Below, in pieces: positions 38,857-50,487 of a DNA stretch of 64,000 nucleotides. The first letter of the stretch is position 1. Every line of letters starts with the position of its first letter. The notes under the pieces are model-generated. The model was given only the letters and a program-made list of their open reading frames with translations, was not told the DNA's origin and did no database searches. The stretch lies in the NCBI GenBank assembly GCA_900546695.1, contig URDX01000009.1, positions 1,271 to 65,270 on the forward strand, written 5' to 3'. A program made the translations under genes and the position numbers. This stretch comes from an uncultured Eubacteriales bacterium. Its GTDB lineage: Bacteria; Bacillota; Clostridia; Oscillospirales; CAG-272.

Positions 38857-38885
38857 TTGACAAGCGTGTATAATTGTGCTACAAT
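38857..38885 (+). promoter_or_regulatory. Consensus sigma-A promoter of the ilv-leu operon
   Basis: TTGACA (38857-38862), exactly 17 nt, then TACAAT (38880-38885). Confidence 0.7.
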
Positions 38886-38910
38886 GCAGAAAAATTAAAT
38901 ATTTTACAAT

Positions 38911-39094
38911 GGCTGAGACGAAGAATGGACTCTGAGAAGAACGGCGTAGAGAATCGGTGGGTGGTGAAAACCGATGTGTTGAATATCCCAGTCCTCTCAC
39001 TTCCGAGCCGGGAGCCTGAAGCCGAAAAGGTGTGTAGGGCGCTCCGTGTATGCTACGTCAGTGCATAGAGGTTAATAGACTTCGATCGAGCAAA
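38911..39094 (+). promoter_or_regulatory. T-box-like module 1: Stem I plus Stem II/IIA-B with a putative Leu (CUC) specifier and no antiterminator or terminator of its own
   Basis: - Base pairing GGCU/AGCC and GAAG/CUUC, with a K-turn-like GAGAC.
- AG bulge AGAGA (38948-38952) and distal loop GGUGAAA (38963-38969).
- CUC-A (38996-38999) sits immediately 5' of the closing CUUCCGAGCC.
- Stem II pairs GGAGC (39011-39015) with GCUCC (39041-39045). Confidence 0.55.
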
Positions 39095-39378
39095 GGCTGC
39101 GACGAAGACGGAGTCTGCAGAGTTGTTTTCCGAGCGAGTCGGGGACGGTGTGAGCCCGACGAAACACAGCAGTTCTTCCCATCACTTCCGAGCCGGAGAC
39201 CCGAAGGGCATCGCCCGTAGATATCTCCCGTGAATGCTACGTCAGTGCATAGAAGTTGATTGACTTCGAAGAGGTGGCGGACCGTGTCCGCAATTTGAGT
39301 GGTACCGCGAGTGCTGTACTTTGTATCATCACCCGTCTCAAAGCAATTTTTAACGGCTTTGAGGCGGGTTTTTGCTTT
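39095..39378 (+). promoter_or_regulatory. T-box riboswitch (module 2) with a putative Ile (AUC) specifier, Stem III, T-box motif and terminator
   Basis: - Same architecture as module 1: AG bulge AGCGA (39133-39137) and distal loop GGUGUGA (39147-39153).
- AUC-A (39181-39184) precedes CUUCCGAGCC.
- Stem II pairs GGAGA with UCUCC.
- Stem III is GCGGAC-cgt-GUCCGC (39277-39291).
- The T-box motif is AAUUUGAGUGGUACCGCG (39292-39309).
- UUUGAG can pair with CUCAAA in the 5' arm of the terminator. Confidence 0.8.
39332..39378 (+). terminator. T-box-controlled intrinsic terminator
   Basis: 13-bp stem, CCCGTCTCAAAGC (39332-39344) with GCTTTGAGGCGGG (39356-39368), followed by TTTTTGCTTT. Confidence 0.8.
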
Positions 39379-39421
39379 GTCGCGGAGCCGACATTTCGTA
39401 AAAAAGAAAGGCGGAATAACG

Positions 39422-40612
39422 ATGTTATCTCTCGACAAGGTTTTTAATGCTCAGATGGTGCTTAAGAGCATCATCCGCGAAACGAATGTGGTCAGAGCAT
39501 ACGGAATTGCTCCCGAGTGCGAGCTGTATCTAAAGCCCGAAAACCTACAGATCACGGGCTCCTTCAAGGTAAGAGGCTCTGCCTACAAGATAGCCATGCT
39601 GTCCGAGGAGGAAAAGGCGCGCGGCGTTATCGCATGCTCTGCGGGAAACCACGCACAGGGTGTTGCGCTTGCTGCGACAAAGAACGGTATAAAATCGCTT
39701 ATCTGCCTGCCCGATACCGCACCGATATCAAAGGTCGAGGCTACAAAGGGCTTCGGCGCGGATGTATGTCTTGTCGAGGGCTGCTATGACGATGCTTATA
39801 GGAAGGCTATCGAGCTTCGCGACAGCGATGGCTATACCTTCGTTCATCCGTTCGATGATGAGAACGTTATCGCGGGTCAGGGAACCATCGCGCTTGAGAT
39901 ACTCAGCGACCTTGACAACATTGATGCTATCGTCGTTCCGATAGGAGGCGGCGGACTTATCTCGGGCATCGCGTATACCGCAAAGCAGATACGCCCGTCT
40001 ATCAAGATATACGGCGTTCAGGCGGCGGGCGCACCCAGCATGTATAACTCGGTAAAGGACGGCGAGATAGAGTGTCTGCCGTCGGTCTCCACCATCGCAG
40101 ACGGCATCGCGGTAAAGCAGCCGGGCGATAATACCTTTACACTTGTCAGTGAATATGTCGACGAGATAGCGCTTGTCACCGACGATGAGATATCGAGTGC
40201 TATCCTCGCGCTTATCGAGAAGCAAAAGATGATAGCTGAGGGCGCGGGCGCGACGGCGGTCGCTGCCGTGATGGCGGGTAAGTTCGATCTGCGCGGCAAG
40301 CGCGTCGTCGCCGTCGTGTCGGGCGGCAATATCGACGTCACGAGTCTGTCGCGCGTTATCGACCGCGGTCTGCGCAATTCGGGACGCTCCTCAAGCATGC
40401 TGATAGAGCTGCTTGACAAGCCCGGTCAGCTCAAGGAGATATCTAGCATCATCGCCGACTGCGGCGCAAACGTCACGGGCGTTCATTACGAGAAGGGCAA
40501 CACCGAAAGCGTCAACGGCTGCTTCCTGCGCGTCGAGATGGAGACGAGGAATTTTGACCATCTGCATGCCATCACAAAGCGGCTGCGCGACGAGGGCTTT
40601 AAGATAGTATAA
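39422..40612 (+). CDS. ilvA: Threonine ammonia-lyase (threonine dehydratase) with a C-terminal ACT-like domain
   Basis: Start at the ATG at 39422, downstream of the terminator. PLP-lysine motif ITGSFKVRGS, plus SAGNHAQGVALAA and GGGGLISG. Confidence 0.85.
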   Translation: MLSLDKVFNAQMVLKSIIRETNVVRAYGIAPECELYLKPENLQITGSFKVRGSAYKIAMLSEEEKARGVIACSAGNHAQGVALAATKNGIKSLICLPDTAPISKVEATKGFGADVCLVEGCYDDAYRKAIELRDSDGYTFVHPFDDENVIAGQGTIALEILSDLDNIDAIVVPIGGGGLISGIAYTAKQIRPSIKIYGVQAAGAPSMYNSVKDGEIECLPSVSTIADGIAVKQPGDNTFTLVSEYVDEIALVTDDEISSAILALIEKQKMIAEGAGATAVAAVMAGKFDLRGKRVVAVVSGGNIDVTSLSRVIDRGLRNSGRSSSMLIELLDKPGQLKEISSIIADCGANVTGVHYEKGNTESVNGCFLRVEMETRNFDHLHAITKRLRDEGFKIV

Positions 40613-40695
40613 GGAATTTACAAGTCAAAACGGCATAGGGCGAAGCCTTTAAGACAAGCTTTAAGAAATATAACTTTTTGACGGAGGATATAACA

Positions 40696-41073
40696 ATGAG
40701 CAACAAGATACACACAAACGACGCACCCGCAGCGATAGGGCCGTATTCTCAGGCTGTATCGGTCGGAAACCTTGTATTTACATCGGGTCAGATCGCGCTT
40801 GACCCCGCGACGGGAGCGATGGTCGAGGGCGGTATCGCAGAGCAGACACACCGCATCTGCCGCAATCTCGAGGCGGTGCTTGCAGCGGCCGGAGCATCCA
40901 CCCGCAGCGCAGTAAAAACGGTCTGCTTCCTCGCAGATATGGCTGATTTTGCAGTCTTCAACGAGGTCTACGGACAGTATTTCTCCGAGAAGCCCGCGCG
41001 CTCCTGCGTTGCGGTAAAAGCCCTACCGAAAGGAGCACTTGCAGAGGTAGAAGTAATCGCGGAGAAGGAGTAA
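40696..41073 (+). CDS. ridA: RidA/YjgF-family reactive enamine/imine deaminase
   Basis: Start at the ATG at 40696 after [28 protein letters not shown] and [23 protein letters not shown]. Confidence 0.85.
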
Positions 41074-41080
41074 ACACAAA

Positions 41081-42751
41081 ATGATGGATTCAAGCAAATA
41101 TCATATCGGATATTTCCCGGTCGATAAGAAATATAACAAATGGGTAGAGCGCGACCGTGTCGAAAAGCCTCCCGTGTGGTGCAGCGTCGACATGCGTGAC
41201 GGCAATCAGAGCCTTGTTATTCCGATGAGCCTTGAAGAAAAGCTCGAGTATTATAAGGTGCTGCTTTCGGTCGGCTTTAAGGAGATAGAGGTCGGATTTC
41301 CCGCAGCGAGCGAGACGGAGTACGAATTCCTGCGCACGCTGATAGATAACGACATGATACCGTCCGATGTGACTGTGCAGGTACTCACACAGTGCCGCGA
41401 GCACATTATCCGTCGCACGTTTGAGGCATGCAAGGGCGCACCGAGCGCTATCATCCATTTCTACAATTCGACAAGCGTTGCTCAGCGCGAGCAGGTGTTC
41501 AAGAAGTCGAAGGAGGAGATAAAGCAGATAGCCGTCGACGGCGCAAAGCTCGTAAAGCGCCTTGCATCCGAGTATGAGGGCAATTTCCGATTCGAGTATT
41601 CGCCCGAGTCGTTCACGGGAACCGAGCCCGAATATGCGCTCGAGGTATGCAACGCGGTGCTTGACGTGCTCGAGCCGAGCGAGGATAACAACGTTATAAT
41701 CAATCTCCCCGTGACCGTTGAGATGAGCATGCCGCATGTGTACGCATCGCAGATAGAATATATGTGTGAGAATCTGCACTACCGCGAGCATGTGACCGTA
41801 TCGCTCCACCCGCACAACGACAGAGGTACGGGCGTTGCGGATGCAGAGCTTGCACTGCTTGCGGGTGCTGACAGGGTCGAGGGAACGCTGTTCGGAAACG
41901 GTGAGCGCACGGGCAACGTCGATATTATCACGCTTGCCATGAATATGTATTCTCACGGTGTCGATCCCGGGCTTGATTTTTCGGACATGCCGTCGCTCGT
42001 CGAAAAGTACGAGAACTGCACACGGATGCATGTCTATGAGAGAGCACCGTACGCGGGCGCGCTGGTGTTTGCCGCGTTCTCGGGCTCGCATCAGGATGCC
42101 ATCGCAAAGGGCATGAAATACCGCGCGAAGAAGCAGCTGCACGAGTGGACGGTTCCGTATATTCCGATAGACCCGAAGGATATCGGCAGGACGTACGATG
42201 CGGATGTTATACGCGTAAATTCCCAGTCGGGCAAGGGCGGCATCGGCTATCTGCTCGAGCAGAGCTACGGCTACAATCTGCCCGCTAAGATGCGCGAGGA
42301 TTTCAGCTATCTGTGTAAGGAGATATCCGACCGGGAGCACAAGGAGCTCAAGCCCGACGAGGTGCTTGAGATTTTCACCGAGCATTATCTGAATCTCCGC
42401 GGCGATATCGAGGTCACCGATTTCGATTTCGAGCGCGTGAACGATGCGGTAAAGATAGACGTGACCTTCCGTCGGGGCGATACCGAGACCGAGCTTGAGG
42501 CTGAGGGCAACGGAACGCTCAGCGCAGTCAACAATGCGCTCAGCGAGCTGACGGGCGAGCAGTACACGCTGCAGGTATACACGCAGCACAGCATGCAGGG
42601 CGAGGGTTCGCGCAGTGTTGCGGCGTCGTATATCGGACTCGAGCGCGAGGACGGCAGAATGTTCTGGGGCGCGGGCACCGATACCGACGTTATCAAGGCT
42701 AATACAAACGCGCTGCTCAGCGCATTCTATAATATGACAAGGGAGGCGTGA
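41081..42751 (+). CDS. leuA: 2-isopropylmalate synthase, long (LeuA type 2) form
   Basis: 556 aa. [35 protein letters not shown], and a C-terminal regulatory domain. Confidence 0.9.
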
Positions 42752-42755
42752 GACG

Positions 42756-44015
42756 ATGGGAATGACTATGACACAGAAGATCCTCGCCGCACACTCAGGA
42801 CTTGACAGAGTAACCGCGGGGCAGCTGATAAGCGCGCGCCTCGACATAGTACTCGGCAACGACATCACAACGCCCGTTGCCGTAAACGAATTCCGCAAGG
42901 CGGGCTTTGACTCGGTTTTCGATAAGAACCGCGTTGCGATAGTGCTCGACCATTTTGTACCTAACAAGGATATAAAGGCTGCGGAGCAGTCAAAGACCTG
43001 CCGCGAGTTTGCATGCGAGCACTGCGTCAGTCACTTTTACGACGTAGGAAAGATGGGTATCGAGCACGCGCTGCTCCCCGAGCAGGGGGTAGTCACCGCG
43101 GGCGACTGTATCATCGGCGCAGACAGCCATACCTGCACTTACGGCGCGCTCGGCGCGTTCTCTACGGGCGTAGGCTCTACCGATATGGCGGCGGGAATGG
43201 CGACGGGTACGGCATGGTTCAAGGTCCCGTCGGCGATAAAACTCGTACTGCACGGCAAGCTTCCCGCAGGCTGCAGCGGAAAGGATGTTATCCTGACCGT
43301 TATCGGCATGATAGGCGTAGACGGCGCACTGTACAAGAGCATGGAATTTGTCGGCGACGGCGTTGCCGCACTCTCGATGGACGACCGCCTCTGCATCTGC
43401 AATATGGCTATAGAGGCAGGCGCAAAGAACGGAATATTCCCCGTTGACGACGTTACGCTCGGATATCTGCGCGGCAGAAGCGAGCGCGAGCCCGTTATAT
43501 ACACAGCAGACCCCGACGCAGAGTATGAGCGTGTTATCGACATTGATCTCGCATCGATAAAGCCGACCGTAGCATGCCCGCATCTGCCCGAGAACACCCG
43601 CCCCGCAAGCGAGCTGCACGATATAAGGATAGATCAGGTCGTTATCGGCTCGTGCACTAACGGGCGTCTCGAGGATATGGAGGCTGCCTATAACATTCTG
43701 AGGGGCGGGCACATTGCGGACGGCGTTCGCTGCATCATAATTCCCGCAACGATGAAGATACTGCGCGAGTGCGTCGAGCGCGGATGGTATACCGCATTTA
43801 TCGACGCGGGCGCGGTCGTTTCGACACCGACCTGCGGACCGTGTCTCGGCGGCTACATGGGAATTCTCGCGGCGGGAGAGCGCTGCATCGCGACAACCAA
43901 CCGCAATTTCGTAGGGCGCATGGGTCATGTCGACAGCGAGGTTTATCTTGCATCCCCGCAGACCGCTGCGGCAAGTGCGCTCGCAGGTTATATCACCGAG
44001 TATAAGGAGGCGTGA
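42756..44015 (+). CDS. leuC: 3-isopropylmalate dehydratase large subunit
   Basis: Aconitase-type motifs [14 protein letters not shown] and CGPCLG. Located in the leu gene context. Confidence 0.9.
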
Positions 44016-44018
44016 GCG

Positions 44019-44513
44019 ATGAATACACAGGGCAAGGTTTTTAAGTATCCCGACAACGTCGATACCGATGTTATCATTCCCGCGCGCTACCTTAACACCT
44101 CCGATGCTGCGGAGCTTGCACAGCACTGCATGGAGGATATCGACCCGTCGTTTGTCGGCAGGGTCAGCGCGGGCGACGTTATGGTCGCGGGCTGGAACTT
44201 CGGCTGCGGCTCGTCGCGTGAGCACGCACCTCTCGTTATCAAGACATGCGGCACGGGCTGCGTTATTGCTAAGAGCTTTGCGCGCATCTTCTATCGCAAC
44301 GCGATAAACATCGGTCTGCCCATTCTCGAATGCGAGCAGGCTGCGGAGGAGATTTCAGCGGGCGATGAGATCAGGGTCGATTTCGACACGGGAGAGATAA
44401 GCGACATCACCACCGGTAAAACATATAAGGCACAGCCGTTCCCTCCGTTTATTCAGAACATAATCAGGTGCGGCGGACTGCTTAAATCGCTGAAGGAGAA
44501 GGGCAATGAATAA
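44019..44513 (+). CDS. leuD: 3-isopropylmalate dehydratase small subunit
   Basis: 164 aa. [13 protein letters not shown] and [12 protein letters not shown]. Confidence 0.9.
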
Positions 44514-45573
44514 GAATATAGCGGTAATCCGCGGCGACGGCATAGGTCCCGAGACAGTCGGTCAAGCGCTGCGCGTGCTCGACCGCGTAGCCGAGCTTTA
44601 CGGGCATAGCTTTACGTATACGGATGTTGACATGGGCGGCTGCGCAATTGATAAGTTCGGCGACCCGCTCCCCGATTCGGAACTTGAAAAATGCGTCGGC
44701 TCAGACAGCGTTCTGCTCGGCGCCGTCGGCGGCAGCAAGTGGAACGGTCTGCCGGGCGAGAAGCGCCCCGAGAAGGGTCTGCTGCGCCTGAGAGCCGGCA
44801 TGGGTGTTTACTCGAACAACCGTCCTGCTAAGATATGGCATCAGCTTGCAGAGGCATCGCCGCTGAAAAGCTCTATCGTCGACCGCGGCATAGACTTTAT
44901 TATCGTGCGCGAGCTCATCGGCGGTATCTATTTCGGTGAGCATATCACAGAAGGGGATACGGCTACCGACGTGCTCAGATACCGCGTGCCCGAGATAGAA
45001 CGTGTCGGAAGAATAGGCTTTGAGACCGCGCGCCGCCGCTCGCACCGTCTCTGCTCGGTAGAAAAGAGCAACGTTCTTGATTCGAGCCGTTTGTGGAAGA
45101 AGGTCATGCACCGTCTCGCTGGGGAGTATCCCGATGTTGAGCTTTCGGATATGCTCGTAGACAACTGCGCTATGCAGATAGTAAAGAATCCATCGCAGTT
45201 CGACGTTATAGTGACCGAGAACATGTTCGGTGATATTCTCTCCGATGAGGCTTCCATGATAACGGGCTCTATCGGAATGATTCCGTCGTCGAGTCTCGGC
45301 GCGACCTCCTGCGGACTTTACGAGCCGATACATGGCTCTGCGCCCGATATCGCGGGCAAGGATATCGCAAACCCGATTGGCACAATCCTCTCGGCTGCAA
45401 TGATGCTGCACTACAGCTTCGACATGCCGCAGGAGGCGGATGCCATCGAGCGCGCGGTGTCCGATTTCCTCGACGCAGGCTACCGCACGGCGGATATTAT
45501 GAGCAAGGGCAAGACCGAGGTGGGCTGCAGCCGCTGCGGTGAGCTCATCACGGGTTATCTCAGAAAGGAGTGA
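44506..45573 (+). CDS. leuB: 3-isopropylmalate dehydrogenase
   Basis: [43 protein letters not shown] and [10 protein letters not shown]. Overlaps leuD by 8 nt. Confidence 0.9.
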
Positions 45574-45578
45574 TGTAA

Positions 45579-47249
45579 ATGCGGCTTTCCGGCGCAGATA
45601 TCATTGTCAAAGTAATAATAGAGCAGGGCTGCGATACCGTTTTCGGCTATCCCGGCGGACAGATACTCAATGTATACGACAGTCTCTACGCACATCAGAA
45701 CGAAATAAATCATATACTCACGGCGCATGAGCAGGGCGCGGCACACGCCGCAGACGGCTATGCGAGAACTACGGGCAAGGTCGGCGTTGTTATCTCAACG
45801 TCGGGTCCCGGCGCTACGAATCTTGTCACGGGCATCGCTACCGCATGCCTTGACTCCATCCCGATGGTCGCTATCTGCGGAAACGTTCCTACGACGCAGA
45901 TAGGCACAGACAGCTTTCAGGAGATAGACATCACGGGCGTCACGCTCCCGATAACAAAGCATAACTATTTTGTAGGCAGCGTTGAGGAGCTTGCCGACAC
46001 GATACGTGAGGCTTTCGCGCTTGCAGCGTCGGGCAGACCGGGTCCCGTGCTTATCGACGTGCCGAAGGATGTTCAGGTCGCGTGCTGCGAATATGAGCCG
46101 CAGCCGCCCGCAAAGCCCGAACCCCCGAAGGCGGCGAAGGAGATACGCATAAAGGAGGCAGCCGGGTATATCAACGCTGCGCGTCGACCCTATATCTATT
46201 TCGGCGGCGGTCTGATAACCGCAGGCGCGCAGGAGCAGATGCTCCGTCTCGCCGATGCCATCGACGCACCGATAGGCTGTTCTCTCATGGGCATATCGGG
46301 CATCCCGACCGACCATCCGCGTTTTCTCGGAATGCAGGGTATGCACGGTCACTATGCATCCTCGATGGCGATGCACCATGCCGACCTTATTATCTCGCTC
46401 GGCGTTCGCTTCAACGACCGTGTAACGGGCAACAGACAGAAGTTTGCAACGGGAGCTAAGATAGTGCACATCGATGTTGACGGCTCCGAGCTTTCAAAGA
46501 CGGTCAGTGCCGTATGCGGTCTGCGCGGCGATGTCAGGCTTACGCTTGATGCGCTGCTCCCGCTCATCACTGCGGGCGAAAAGTCCGAATGGAGAGCGGA
46601 GGTCGACGGCTTCCGCGCAAAGGAGGACGAATATCTCGACCGCAGAGAGGGCATGACCCCGAGAAAAGCCATAATTACGCTTAATCGCCATCTCGGTGAG
46701 AATACCGCCGTTTGTACCGACGTCGGTCAGCATCAAATGTGGGCTGCGCAGAATCTTTCGTTCCGCACTCCCCGCAGATTCGTATCGAGCGGCGGCCTCG
46801 GAACGATGGGCTTCGGCTTAGGCGCGGCTATCGGCGCAGCTTTCGGAACGCGCGAGCGCAGCGTACTCATAACGGGCGACGGCAGCTTCGGCATGTGTCT
46901 GCAGGAGCTCGCGACCGCCGTTACCTACAATATTCCGATTGTCATTCTTATCCTCAATAATGGCGTGCTCGGAATGGTACGTCAGTGGCAGACGCTGTTC
47001 TTCAACAAGCATTATTCGAATACCGTACTTAACCGCAAGACCGACTTTCCCGCGTTTGCCCGCTCGTTCGGTGCAGACGGCGAGACGGTCTGTACGCCCG
47101 AAGAGCTCGACGCAGCTCTCACGCGCGCATTCGACGCGGAGGAACCGTACATCGTCGACTGCCGCATAGACAAGGACGAGCTTGTGCTTCCGATGCTCCC
47201 GCCGGGCGGCAGCATGGATGATATTATCGTAAAGGCGGAGGTGCAGTGA
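45579..47249 (+). CDS. ilvB: Acetolactate synthase large subunit
   Basis: ThDP-enzyme motifs GYPGGQILNVYD, TSGPGATN and GLGTMGFGLGAAIGA...GDGSF. Confidence 0.9.
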   Translation: MRLSGADIIVKVIIEQGCDTVFGYPGGQILNVYDSLYAHQNEINHILTAHEQGAAHAADGYARTTGKVGVVISTSGPGATNLVTGIATACLDSIPMVAICGNVPTTQIGTDSFQEIDITGVTLPITKHNYFVGSVEELADTIREAFALAASGRPGPVLIDVPKDVQVACCEYEPQPPAKPEPPKAAKEIRIKEAAGYINAARRPYIYFGGGLITAGAQEQMLRLADAIDAPIGCSLMGISGIPTDHPRFLGMQGMHGHYASSMAMHHADLIISLGVRFNDRVTGNRQKFATGAKIVHIDVDGSELSKTVSAVCGLRGDVRLTLDALLPLITAGEKSEWRAEVDGFRAKEDEYLDRREGMTPRKAIITLNRHLGENTAVCTDVGQHQMWAAQNLSFRTPRRFVSSGGLGTMGFGLGAAIGAAFGTRERSVLITGDGSFGMCLQELATAVTYNIPIVILILNNGVLGMVRQWQTLFFNKHYSNTVLNRKTDFPAFARSFGADGETVCTPEELDAALTRAFDAEEPYIVDCRIDKDELVLPMLPPGGSMDDIIVKAEVQ

Positions 47250-47755
47250 TGAACAAGTATACGGTAGCCGTACTCGTACGGAATCAGTTCGGTGTGCTCA
47301 ACCGCGTAACAAGTCTTTTCCGCCGCCGTCAGTTCAACATCAGCGCGCTGACGGTCAGCGAGACCGAGACGAGCGATCTCTCGCGCATCACCGTCGTTTT
47401 CGACGGCGAGGAGACCTCAAAGCAGCAGCTCATCAATCAGCTCTATAAGCTGCCCGATGTTTGCTCCATCAAGGAATTCAGCGAGGATAACTCGGTCAGC
47501 TGCGAGCTTCTGCTCATAAAGATGCTGAACGAGCCCGAGTCGCGGGACGATATTCAGCGCGCGGCGGACGCTTTCGGCGCAGTCACCGTTGACTATTCAA
47601 AGGATTATATAACCTTCCGCCTGACCGACAGCTCGAGGAGGATTGACGATTTTATCAACATTCTCCGCGATTATACCATTCTCGAGATATGCCGCACGGG
47701 CAGCGTCTCGCTCGAAAAGGGCAGCACCACTATCCGTCAGGTAATCAACCTTTAA
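47246..47755 (+). CDS. ilvN: Acetolactate synthase small (regulatory) subunit
   Basis: ACT-domain N-terminus VLVRNQFGVLNRVTSLFRRRQFNISALTV. Overlaps ilvB by 4 nt. Confidence 0.85.
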   Translation: MMNKYTVAVLVRNQFGVLNRVTSLFRRRQFNISALTVSETETSDLSRITVVFDGEETSKQQLINQLYKLPDVCSIKEFSEDNSVSCELLLIKMLNEPESRDDIQRAADAFGAVTVDYSKDYITFRLTDSSRRIDDFINILRDYTILEICRTGSVSLEKGSTTIRQVINL

Positions 47756-47768
47756 TTTTACGCATTAA

Positions 47769-48818
<1,050 letters not shown>

Positions 48819-48831
48819 TCGGAGGCATTTT

Positions 48832-50487
48832 ATGTCGAGAGAAAACATTGTCGACGGGGTGCAGAACGCGCCCCATCGCAGTCTGTTTCACGCGCTCGGT
48901 CTGACCGAGGAGGAGCAGGCGAGACCGCTCGTCGGTATTGTCAGCTCGTATAATGAGATAGTTCCCGGACATATGAACATCGACAAGATAGTCGAGGCTG
49001 TCAAGCTCGGCGTTGCAATGGCGGGCGGTACGCCTATCGTTTTCCCCGCCATCGCCGTCTGCGACGGTATCGCGATGGGTCATACGGGAATGAAGTATTC
49101 GCTCGTCACCCGCGACCTTATCGCCGACTCGACCGAGGCTATGGTGCTCGCTCACGGCTTTGACGCTCTTGTCATGGTGCCTAACTGCGATAAGAACGTT
49201 CCGGGTTTGCTTATGGCGGCGGCGCGCGTCAACGTGCCCACTGTATTTGTCAGCGGCGGTCCGATGCTTGCAGGCAGGGTTGAAGGCAAAAAGACGAGCC
49301 TTTCGAGCATGTTCGAGGCGGTCGGCGCGTATAACGCGGGAAAAATTGACGACAAAAAGCTGCTCGAGTACGAATGCAAGACCTGCCCGTCGTGCGGCTC
49401 ATGCTCGGGCATGTATACGGCTAACTCTATGAACTGTCTGACCGAAGCACTCGGTATGGGTCTGCGCGGCAACGGTACGATTCCCGCCGTCTATTCCGCC
49501 CGCATCGAGCTTGCAAAGCATGCCGGCATGGCTGTAACGGAGCTGCTGCGCCGCAATATCAGACCGCGTGACATTATGACGCGCGGAGCGCTTATGAATG
49601 CGCTTACCGTCGATATGGCGCTCGGCTGCTCTACGAACAGCATGCTGCACCTGCCCGCTATTGCGCATGAGTGCGGTGTTGAGCTGAATCTTGATATAGC
49701 AAACGATATCAGCGCAAAAACGCCTAATCTCTGCCATCTTGCTCCCGCGGGCAGGACCTATATGGAGGACCTGAACGAGGCGGGCGGCGTATACGCAGTG
49801 ATGCACGAGCTGACAAAGCGCGGACTGCTGAATACCGACTGCATGACCGTTACGGGGCATACGATAGGCGAGAACATCGAGGGCTGTGAGATTCTTGATA
49901 CCGACACCATCCGCCCGATAGACAACCCGTTCAGCGAGACGGGCGGTATTGCGGTGCTCAAGGGCAATCTTGCGCCCGAGGGCAGCGTAGTAAAGCGCTC
50001 CGCCGTGCTTCCCGAGATGCTTGTGCATGAGGGTCCCGCGCGCGTGTTCGACTCCGAGGAGGAGGCGCAGGCGGCTATCAATGCGGGCAAGATAAAGGCG
50101 GGTGATGTCGTCGTTATCCGCTATGAGGGTCCGAAGGGCGGACCCGGTATGCGCGAGATGCTGAACCCCACTTCCGCTATTATGGGAATGGGACTCGGCA
50201 GCAGCGTTGCGCTCATCACCGACGGACGCTTCAGCGGCGCTACACGCGGCGCATGCATCGGTCACGTCAGCCCCGAAGCAGCTTCGGGCGGCATGATAGG
50301 CGTTGTCGAGGAGGGCGACATTATCAGCATCAATATCCCCGATAACCGCATCGAGCTCAAGGTTGACGCGGCTGTGCTTGAGGAGAGAATGAAGAATTTC
50401 GTGCCTAAGAAGAAGGAACTGTCGGGATATCTGCGCCGCTATGCCGCGCTTGTCTCGAGCGGTGCTTCTGGCGCGATACTCAACTGA
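48832..50487 (+). CDS. ilvD: Dihydroxy-acid dehydratase
   Basis: [33 protein letters not shown] and TDGRFSG. Confidence 0.9.

Follow-up and report, generated by a model that had tools for sequence, protein, structure and literature searches.

Two tRNA-decoding modules in series with one T-box discriminator ahead of an ilv-leu operon in gut Oscillospirales

Introduction

In the current view, a T-box riboswitch couples one tRNA to one switch, and tandem T-boxes are two switches in series that must both open. Here we describe a leader RNA from an uncultured Eubacteriales bacterium of the Oscillospirales, encoded in a stretch of 64,000 nucleotides (nt) of contig URDX01000009.1 (assembly GCA_900546695.1, positions 1,271 to 65,270 of the forward strand; this whole stretch is called the window below). 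In this leader, two T-box decoding modules, the first with a leucine (Leu) codon and the second with an isoleucine (Ile) codon, stand in series ahead of one antiterminator and of the ilv-leu operon that begins with ilvA.

The T-box of Bacillus subtilis belongs to the same switch family, serves the same kind of operon and has a Leu codon, and it likewise uses a tRNA-dependent choice between antiterminator and terminator with a UGGN bulge. The response of B. subtilis to isoleucine and valine (Val) comes from the CodY protein (PMC12452182). Its T-box has one decoder and senses leucine only, whereas the window adds a second branched-chain decoder in the same RNA. Fully tandem T-boxes are known from trp operons, thrS and ilv/leu operons of Bacillota, and a 2025 survey lists the ilv and leu operons of Bacillota as 'T-box T-box', the contiguous T-boxes being complete units that need two uncharged tRNAs (PMC12452182). 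They share with the window leader the presence of two Stem I domains per leader, and one relative described below (L054) is exactly of this type. However, each unit of a full tandem, thrZ being one such case, has its own antiterminator and terminator, and read-through needs both; the window leader has a single discriminator and is therefore not a full tandem.

The 2008 abstract of Vitreschak et al. reportedly describes a class with duplicated terminator-antiterminator elements, which duplicates the expression platform where the window duplicates the decoder, the opposite arrangement. The two-codon 'NT-box' of Clostridium acetobutylicum (Saad et al., 2013) is said to have one discriminator for which a response to two tRNAs was proposed. 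It has two overlapping codons in one specifier loop of one Stem I, whereas the window has two complete decoding domains with one codon each; because its codons lie in separate Stem I domains, the window leader is not a two-codon, single-Stem-I T-box. An initial annotation of the window, made from its sequence, held that known tandems repeat the whole unit, which stands, and that a double decoder sharing one expression platform had not been described, which is too strong, since a 2020 review mentions 'partially tandem T-boxes', their mode of action given as unknown and without detail (PMC7583486). Like the window leader, these have one part of the T-box duplicated and the rest single. Our full-text search, which did not cover the classic comparative T-box surveys, yielded no account of an antiterminator shared by two Stem I domains.

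Among other riboswitches, the guanine-phosphoribosyl pyrophosphate (PRPP) aptamer pair consists of tandem aptamers with one expression platform and is the source of the IMPLY gate. A 2022 review of tandem riboswitches names IMPLY as the sole logic gate of this kind observed naturally and places OR among the logic functions 'not naturally observed' (PMC9481103). Glycine riboswitches resemble the window leader in having adjacent sensor domains, no terminator between them and one expression platform (PMC12452182, PMC9481103), but their aptamers bind the same ligand cooperatively, whereas the ligands of the window leader would be two different tRNAs, both acting as ON signals. Two decoders with one T-box switch are thus a variation on known T-box and tandem-sensor types and not a categorically new one.

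Results and Discussion

Two decoding modules and one antiterminator

The leader of ~490 nt lies between a sigma-70-type promoter, the sole promoter-like site on the plus strand ahead of it, and the ilvA start at 39422. Three collinear direct-repeat blocks of 42 nt (90% identity), 30 nt (80%) and 18 nt (89%), offset by 184-185 nt, mark two copies of one unit, each a T-box decoding module of ~184 nt. We call them module U (upstream) and module D (downstream). The features of the leader are as follows.

38857..38885, + strand: promoter, sigma-70-like, with TTGACA, a 17-nt spacer and an extended -10 (TG-TACAAT); 11 of 12 consensus matches, TG present
38906..39089, + strand: module U (Leu), made up of Stem I, Stem II, IIA/B pseudoknot and an extra hairpin; evidence from a partial Rfam T-box match, the repeats, orthologues and covariation
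38911..39009, + strand: module U Stem I, with a GGC/GCC base helix containing a kink-turn (K-turn; GA motif) and a GAAG/CUUC helix
38948-38952, + strand: module U AG bulge, AGAGA
38953-38975, + strand: module U distal helix and loop, the loop being GGGUGGUGAAA
38996..38998, + strand: module U specifier CUC (Leu), followed by A at 38999 and then the closing helix CUUC; from the covariance-model alignment
39010..39044, + strand: module U Stem II, with S-turn motif GAA / GUA; five pairs changed on both sides
39045..39066, + strand: module U Stem IIA/B pseudoknot, IIA being CGU...ACG and IIB AUGC with GCAU; inside the 42-nt repeat
39068..39083, + strand: module U lineage-specific hairpin after IIA/B, GAGGUU...GACUUC; 99% paired
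39090..39273, + strand: module D (Ile); evidence from a full-length Rfam T-box match (39090-39343) and covariation
39095-39194, 39195-39228, 39229-39250 and 39252-39267, + strand: module D Stem I, Stem II, IIA/B and extra hairpin
39133-39137, + strand: module D AG bulge, AGCGA; the distal loop of D is ACGGUGUGA
39181..39183, + strand: module D specifier AUC (Ile), followed by A at 39184; from the covariance-model alignment
39277..39291, + strand: Stem III, GCGGAC...GUCCGC, in single copy 3' of module D; from the Rfam alignment
39292..39343, + strand: the single discriminator/antiterminator, with T-box sequence AAUUUGAGUGGUACCGCG and the predicted tRNA-acceptor-binding bulge UGGU at 39300-39303; from the Rfam alignment
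39331..39379, + strand: intrinsic terminator, a hairpin of 14 base pairs (bp; 39331-39344 with 39356-39369, an inverted repeat of 93% complementarity) with an 11-nt loop, followed by the U-run UUUUUGCUUUG

The K-turn reads GC, a loop of UGAGAC or UGCGAC and GAAG on its 5' side and CUUC, CGA and GC on its 3' side in the two modules, and in both it aligns to the K-turn of the Rfam T-box model RF00230. Stem II has the S-turn GAA / GUA in U and D alike, and the specifier codons, one per loop in canonical register, lie in two separate Stem I domains 185 nt apart. Module U has no Stem III, T-box sequence or terminator. A single antiterminator/terminator region was found in the leader with nhmmer, and a terminator scan and a profile search found neither a terminator-like site nor a second T-box motif between U and D. 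The 3' strand of the antiterminator (CCCGUCUCA) doubles as the 5' strand of the terminator hairpin.

RF00230 was run at a permissive threshold, its gathering score being 93 bits. A full-length match covered 39090-39343 (47.9 bits, E=2e-9), and a second covered 38906-39074 (32.7 bits, E=1.7e-5) with 57 model positions deleted, those of Stem III and the antiterminator; CUC-A (38996-38999) and AUC-A (39181-39184) occupy the specifier position of the model in these alignments. A default scan of the whole window gave no match, both permissive matches lying below the gathering score. That score is an operational threshold and not a biological feature: the window lineage has every structural feature looked for in a transcriptional T-box and falls short only of the Rfam score. 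The T-boxes of the window's own clade (clade A, below; the window and the L002-L052 leaders) score 33-87 bits against RF00230. Because they stay below the gathering score, default annotation misses the window leader entirely.

These results bear out the anatomy that the initial annotation had read from the sequence. It had placed the promoter at the same position, two direct repeats of about 180 nt within a few bases of the limits above, and a shared K-turn base in both; it had also read AG bulges AGAGA and AGCGA, distal loops GGUGGUGAAA and ACGGUGUGA, Stem II helices that differ by a compensatory change (GGAGC/GCUCC versus GGAGA/UCUCC) and a nearly identical IIA/B region, which falls within the 42-nt repeat of 90% identity. 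Its specifiers, CUC-A and AUC-A, are those that the covariance model aligns, and the Rfam alignment, nhmmer and the terminator scan agree with it that Stem III, T-box motif and terminator follow the second module only. The RF00230 scan that it had proposed returned two Stem I matches and one antiterminator at the permissive threshold.

Conservation and covariation of module U

The ilvA loci of 80 species-representative genomes were collected (IlvA 72-91% identical; uncultured or recently named Oscillospirales-type gut bacteria), and modules and antiterminators were located in them by profile searches. Two decoders with one antiterminator were found in 18 further species-representative genomes of the window's own clade (clade A), and the mean identities that follow are taken over these and the window genome, 19 in all. 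Module U has a mean identity of 0.70 and module D of 0.80, compared with 0.36 at four-fold degenerate sites of ilvA and 0.33 in the 150 nt upstream of the leader; on these figures both modules are under purifying selection. Modules U and D are 0.57 identical within the same genome and 0.55 between different genomes, indicating that the duplication predates the divergence of the species and that the copies have not been homogenised.

Base pairs were counted on a hand-drawn canonical T-box structure in place of the RNAalifold fold. In the alignment of U modules, 85.4% of cells were paired in the canonical structure, versus 33-46% with the partners slid, and 20 pairs had changed on both sides, a count reached in none of 500 shuffles. 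The corresponding figures for D and single-Ile modules (38 sequences) were 96.7% of cells and 24 pairs. Pairing reached 95-100% of cells, with compensatory changes, in the U base helix, GAAG/CUUC helix and distal helix, and 97-100% in the IIA and IIB helices across the U and D alignments, with those of U at 98-100%. The helices that flank the K-turn in D likewise pair in 95-100% of cells and show compensatory changes. AGAGA is near-invariant in the relatives, and the signature motifs of U are all intact in the 19 genomes and in 35 metagenome contigs with the same layout. The conservation, pairing and compensatory change together show that module U is not a decaying remnant.

That the first module is maintained had been proposed in the initial annotation from the Stem II change within the window, and the alignment of orthologues, with 20 doubly changed pairs and identity far above that of neutral sites, now carries the point. 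Its anatomy and its reading of module U as maintained are supported on all three points open to computation: module U scores as a T-box Stem I, Stem II and IIA/B, orthologous upstream modules reaching 47-63 bits against RF00230; its relatives show covariation; and the linker between the modules in clade A is an A-rich single strand of 9-12 nt with no cryptic terminator or antiterminator.

One further element recurs in both modules. An extra 6-bp hairpin after IIA/B (39068-39083 and 39252-39267) is present in every module of the lineage and lies outside the Rfam consensus. Among the D and single modules, compensatory change is seen at four of its base pairs; GAAGCU/GGCUUC versus GAUGCU/GGCAUC is one instance.

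Specifier codons across relatives

Metagenomes were searched for the junction between the modules, defined as the post-IIA/B hairpin followed by a new K-turn strand within 4-16 nt. This pattern was matched by 35 contigs, in each of which two decoders precede a single antiterminator; the leader on four contigs from the human gut is 92.6% identical to that of the window. The downstream specifier is AUC in 54 of 54 leaders (19 genomes and 35 contigs). Upstream, the clade A genomes have CUC (18 of 19) or CUG (one, L024), and the contigs have CUC (31) or the Val codon GUC (four: L088, L096, L100 and L102, whose closest relative, L097, has CUC), giving totals of 49 CUC, one CUG and four GUC. CUC, AUC and GUC differ at one position. 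Across relatives, including the second clade described below, specifiers never code for anything but Leu, Val or Ile, which are the operon's products, and the upstream-downstream combinations found are Leu-Ile, Val-Ile and Ile-Leu. The comparative data make the finding stronger than it first appeared, with dozens of carriers, three specifier combinations and at least two origins.

Several observations concern the shared discriminator. Leu-only, Ile-only and double leaders all carry the motif TGAGTGGTACCGCG unchanged, and sister species have Leu-only or Ile-only decoders on the same discriminator sequence, which supports the earlier suggestion that one UGGU bulge could serve both tRNAs. For L088, the Infernal alignment joins the upstream module to the shared antiterminator in one 65-bit T-box with GUC at the specifier position and reads the entire downstream module as an insertion. 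The lineage with the Val-Ile and Leu-Ile variants has a tRNA-Leu(UAG) gene near three related leaders (L088 878-961; L096 5912-5995, minus strand; L097 1145-1227), the only tRNA gene found there; in L088 it has A73 and lies ~0.9 kb upstream of the double leader. We assume that tRNA-Leu(GAG), tRNA-Ile(GAU) and tRNA-Val(GAC) of the window organism also have A73. No tRNA genes were found in the 64-kb window. Agreement between U and D in the base after the codon, seen in 16 of 18 genomes, was rejected as a pattern, ~12 metagenome contigs being discordant.

A second origin, and gain and loss of modules

Two decoders with one antiterminator were also found in eight genomes of a second, more distant clade (clade B: L063, L065, L069-L072, L077 and L080; IlvA ~76% identical). 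Here the order is reversed, with AUC upstream and CUC downstream in the covariance-model alignment, and an equivalent promoter lies just 5' of the first module. Clade B T-boxes are more canonical than those of clade A: the downstream unit scores 86-96 bits against RF00230, some downstream T-boxes attaining the gathering score at 93.4-95.7 bits, and the upstream partial unit 51-63 bits. Identity is 0.69 among clade B modules and only 0.43-0.50 between them and the modules of clade A, and the single-Leu leader of a sister species (L055) is 0.86 identical to the downstream module of clade B and 0.72 to the upstream one. This pattern points to a separate duplication of clade B's own Leu decoder, with the new upstream copy turned to Ile, and so the two-decoder layout appears, from these identities, to have arisen at least twice by decoder duplication.

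The clade B linker is ~30 nt long and contains a small hairpin (GUAGU..ACUAC, for example L069 2654-2678), which is kept by compensatory change in L072 (UACG..CGUA) and sits at the position of Stem III, which would suit a remnant or an insulator. Only some members have a U-run ahead of this hairpin. In some of the linkers, UUUUUU following a 4-bp hairpin was considered as a cryptic terminator and rejected, as it is absent in L063, L070, L072 and L077 and was not flagged by the terminator scan.

In a neighbour-joining tree of IlvA, the double leaders of clade B are monophyletic and those of clade A are interspersed with single-module leaders. The single Ile modules resemble D and the single Leu modules resemble U, which fits repeated loss of one module through recombination between the repeats. 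In one genome, L054 (219-965), ilvA is preceded by a complete Leu T-box (CUC) and a complete Ile T-box (AUC), in that order, scoring 89.8 and 94.2 bits, each with its own antiterminator and terminator; the spacing of its module starts is 494 nt, versus 184 nt in the window. With two switches in series ahead of the same operon, L054 lends itself to comparison with the shared-switch layout.

Proposed mechanism and its alternatives

The transcript from the single promoter runs through module U (CUC), module D (AUC), Stem III, the UGGU bulge and the mutually exclusive antiterminator and terminator. Both modules retain the K-turn, specifier, AG bulge and distal T-loops, Stem II S-turn and IIA/B pseudoknot, the elements for clamping the anticodon and elbow of a tRNA. 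We propose that the leader is a two-input, OR-like transcriptional T-box, with two tRNA-decoding domains in series on one discriminator, in which either uncharged tRNA would stabilise the antiterminator, and we put the probability of this reading at roughly 55%. Each module would bind its own tRNA, and an uncharged tRNA bound by either module would pair its NCCA end with the single T-box bulge, A73 standing opposite the bulge U. This pairing would stabilise the antiterminator and give read-through into the operon, and shortage of leucine (valine in some relatives) or of isoleucine alone would switch the operon on. Module D would be a closed domain, amounting from U's side to an insert within the flexible linker that leads to Stem III: since Stem I, Stem II and IIA of D follow one another without a spacer, its 5' and 3' ends probably lie together, and the discriminator would then stay within reach of the upstream tRNA. 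A 2025 single-molecule study describes a T-box decoding domain as folding independently of the discriminator (PMC12647780).

The codon evidence favours this mechanism. A codon held to the amino acids of the operon is expected only if the charging of that tRNA matters, and only the discriminator reads charging. In addition, either specificity can occupy the upstream position, as the comparison of clades A and B shows. The opening of one switch by either tRNA is, on these sequence comparisons, the best-supported mechanism, although we infer that both decoders feed the antiterminator.

A number of observations weigh against it. The acceptor end of a U-bound tRNA would have to reach a discriminator ~190 nt downstream, and that tRNA could clash sterically with module D or with a D-bound tRNA. 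Between D and Stem III lies a nearly invariant linker, CGAAGAGGU, a connector that U does not have. Pairing drops to 63-69% of cells in the two interior helices of U Stem I; a one-base slip of the MAFFT alignment in some sequences accounts for part of this. The specifier loops of clade A do not have the usual S-turn (AGUA/GAA), and the base after the codon is often C and not a purine; both are typical T-box features but not universal ones. Folded alone, module U is non-canonical, the nested canonical structure having -34.3 versus -51.2 kcal/mol for the minimum free energy (MFE) fold, whereas the MFE fold of module D is canonical. The MFE fold of the whole leader mixes the two modules, and no significant folding z-score was obtained for U alone, D alone or the whole leader; we treated free-energy folding as uninformative for such motif-rich stems. 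The window's own module D reads AGCGA where all relatives read AGAGA. Finally, one module has been lost in many close relatives, about half of which are single-module, which suggests that the second input is dispensable in some lineages.

The missing connector also bears on a different role for module U, in which it would bind its tRNA without delivering the acceptor end to the shared discriminator and would act indirectly, by chaperoning or gating the folding of D, by sterically helping or hindering the binding of tRNA-Ile, by letting charged tRNA-Leu block the discriminator, or by pausing that sets a kinetic window. The logic would then be cooperative, hierarchical or inhibitory and not a simple OR. 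A connector conserved for D and absent for U would fit such a role, as would the 9-12 nt between clade A modules, across which bound tRNAs could touch, the small covarying hairpin between clade B modules, which is insulator-like, and the tandem glycine aptamers, which share one platform cooperatively and form no logic gate (PMC12452182). We nevertheless regard an indirect role as unlikely. The upstream codon is kept to Leu, Val or Ile, as expected if tRNA charging matters, the upstream position is open to either specificity, and in Leu-only relatives such as L014 a module of the U type appears to be the sole decoder.

Two independent decoders would be absent altogether if the 5' strand of U paired with the 3' strand of D in a strand-swapped fold, or if U were a 5' element that acts independently of tRNA, as a stabiliser or by binding a K-turn protein. 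On paper the strands could swap, because each K-turn strand of U nearly matches its counterpart in D (the 18-nt and 30-nt repeats), and the mixing of the modules in the whole-leader MFE fold points the same way. RNAalifold, given mixed or D-type alignments, likewise paired the 5' strand of the K-turn with the distant IIA/B region in preference to the canonical base of Stem I (window 39096-39107 with 39237-39248; columns 11-22 with 176-187 of alignment A1). This pairing was rejected because no pair in it changed on both sides; it is probably a by-product of conserved sequence, and it could be a folding intermediate. The canonical helices within each module do show pairs changed on both sides, the alternative pairings show none, and an RNA that folds as it is transcribed tends to form its local helices first. 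Nor would a role independent of tRNA confine the specifier to branched-chain codons. These points make the alternative folds and tRNA-independent roles quite improbable.

Less credible still is that module U is a non-functional relic, either of a decoder duplication or of a complete T-box like those of L054 that lost its antiterminator, and that the leader is an ordinary Ile T-box: the full Leu-Ile tandem of L054, the single modules of about half the close relatives, the somewhat lower conservation of U than of D and its non-canonical free-energy fold would suit a relic, but the sequence comparisons already contradict it, with U identity about twice that of neutral sites, 20 doubly changed base pairs, signature motifs intact in every genome and contig, a U specifier that never leaves Leu and Val codons, and a layout that evolved again in clade B.

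If the either-tRNA mechanism with a shared switch is true, the decoding and discriminating halves of a T-box are naturally separable, and one RNA integrates the charging signals of two tRNAs. A combined ilv-leu operon must respond to a shortage of any one of its products, which a two-decoder layout would allow. The leader could then be the missing natural OR gate among riboswitches, with decoders of different specificity sharing a discriminator, either uncharged tRNA sufficing, and inputs added by decoder duplication and a change of one specifier nucleotide; we hold this broader claim tentatively, at a little under an even chance. Two-decoder leaders are common in gut Oscillospirales, and surveys will under-count them because their upstream modules lie below the Rfam gathering threshold. 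The layout also offers a template for engineered multi-input tRNA sensors.

The downstream operon and individual leaders

The operon that follows the terminator has ten genes, identified from open reading frames (ORFs) and NCBIfam matches, and for each protein the best NCBIfam model scored at or above its curated cut-off.

39422..50487, + strand: regulated operon ilvA-ridA-leuA-leuC-leuD-leuB-ilvB-ilvN-ilvC-ilvD

A few leaders depart from the common pattern. The AGCGA of module D is private to the window genome, all 37 other aligned D and single-Ile modules reading AGAGA, as do the human-gut contigs with the 92.6%-identical leader; either a sequencing error or a substitution confined to this genome, in an otherwise near-invariant tRNA-elbow motif, may explain it. 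The upstream module of L024 (2513-2700), which has the CUG specifier, has a D-like Stem II region, and its sequence suggests gene conversion between the repeats. In L100, unrelated sequence and a different hairpin replace the usual terminator and ilvA after GGUACCGCG, and a rearrangement or a chimeric assembly could account for this divergence past the T-box motif. L043 (224-593) carries a U-like Stem I in each of its two modules, whose mutual identity is 0.67; a third, separate duplication may lie behind this.

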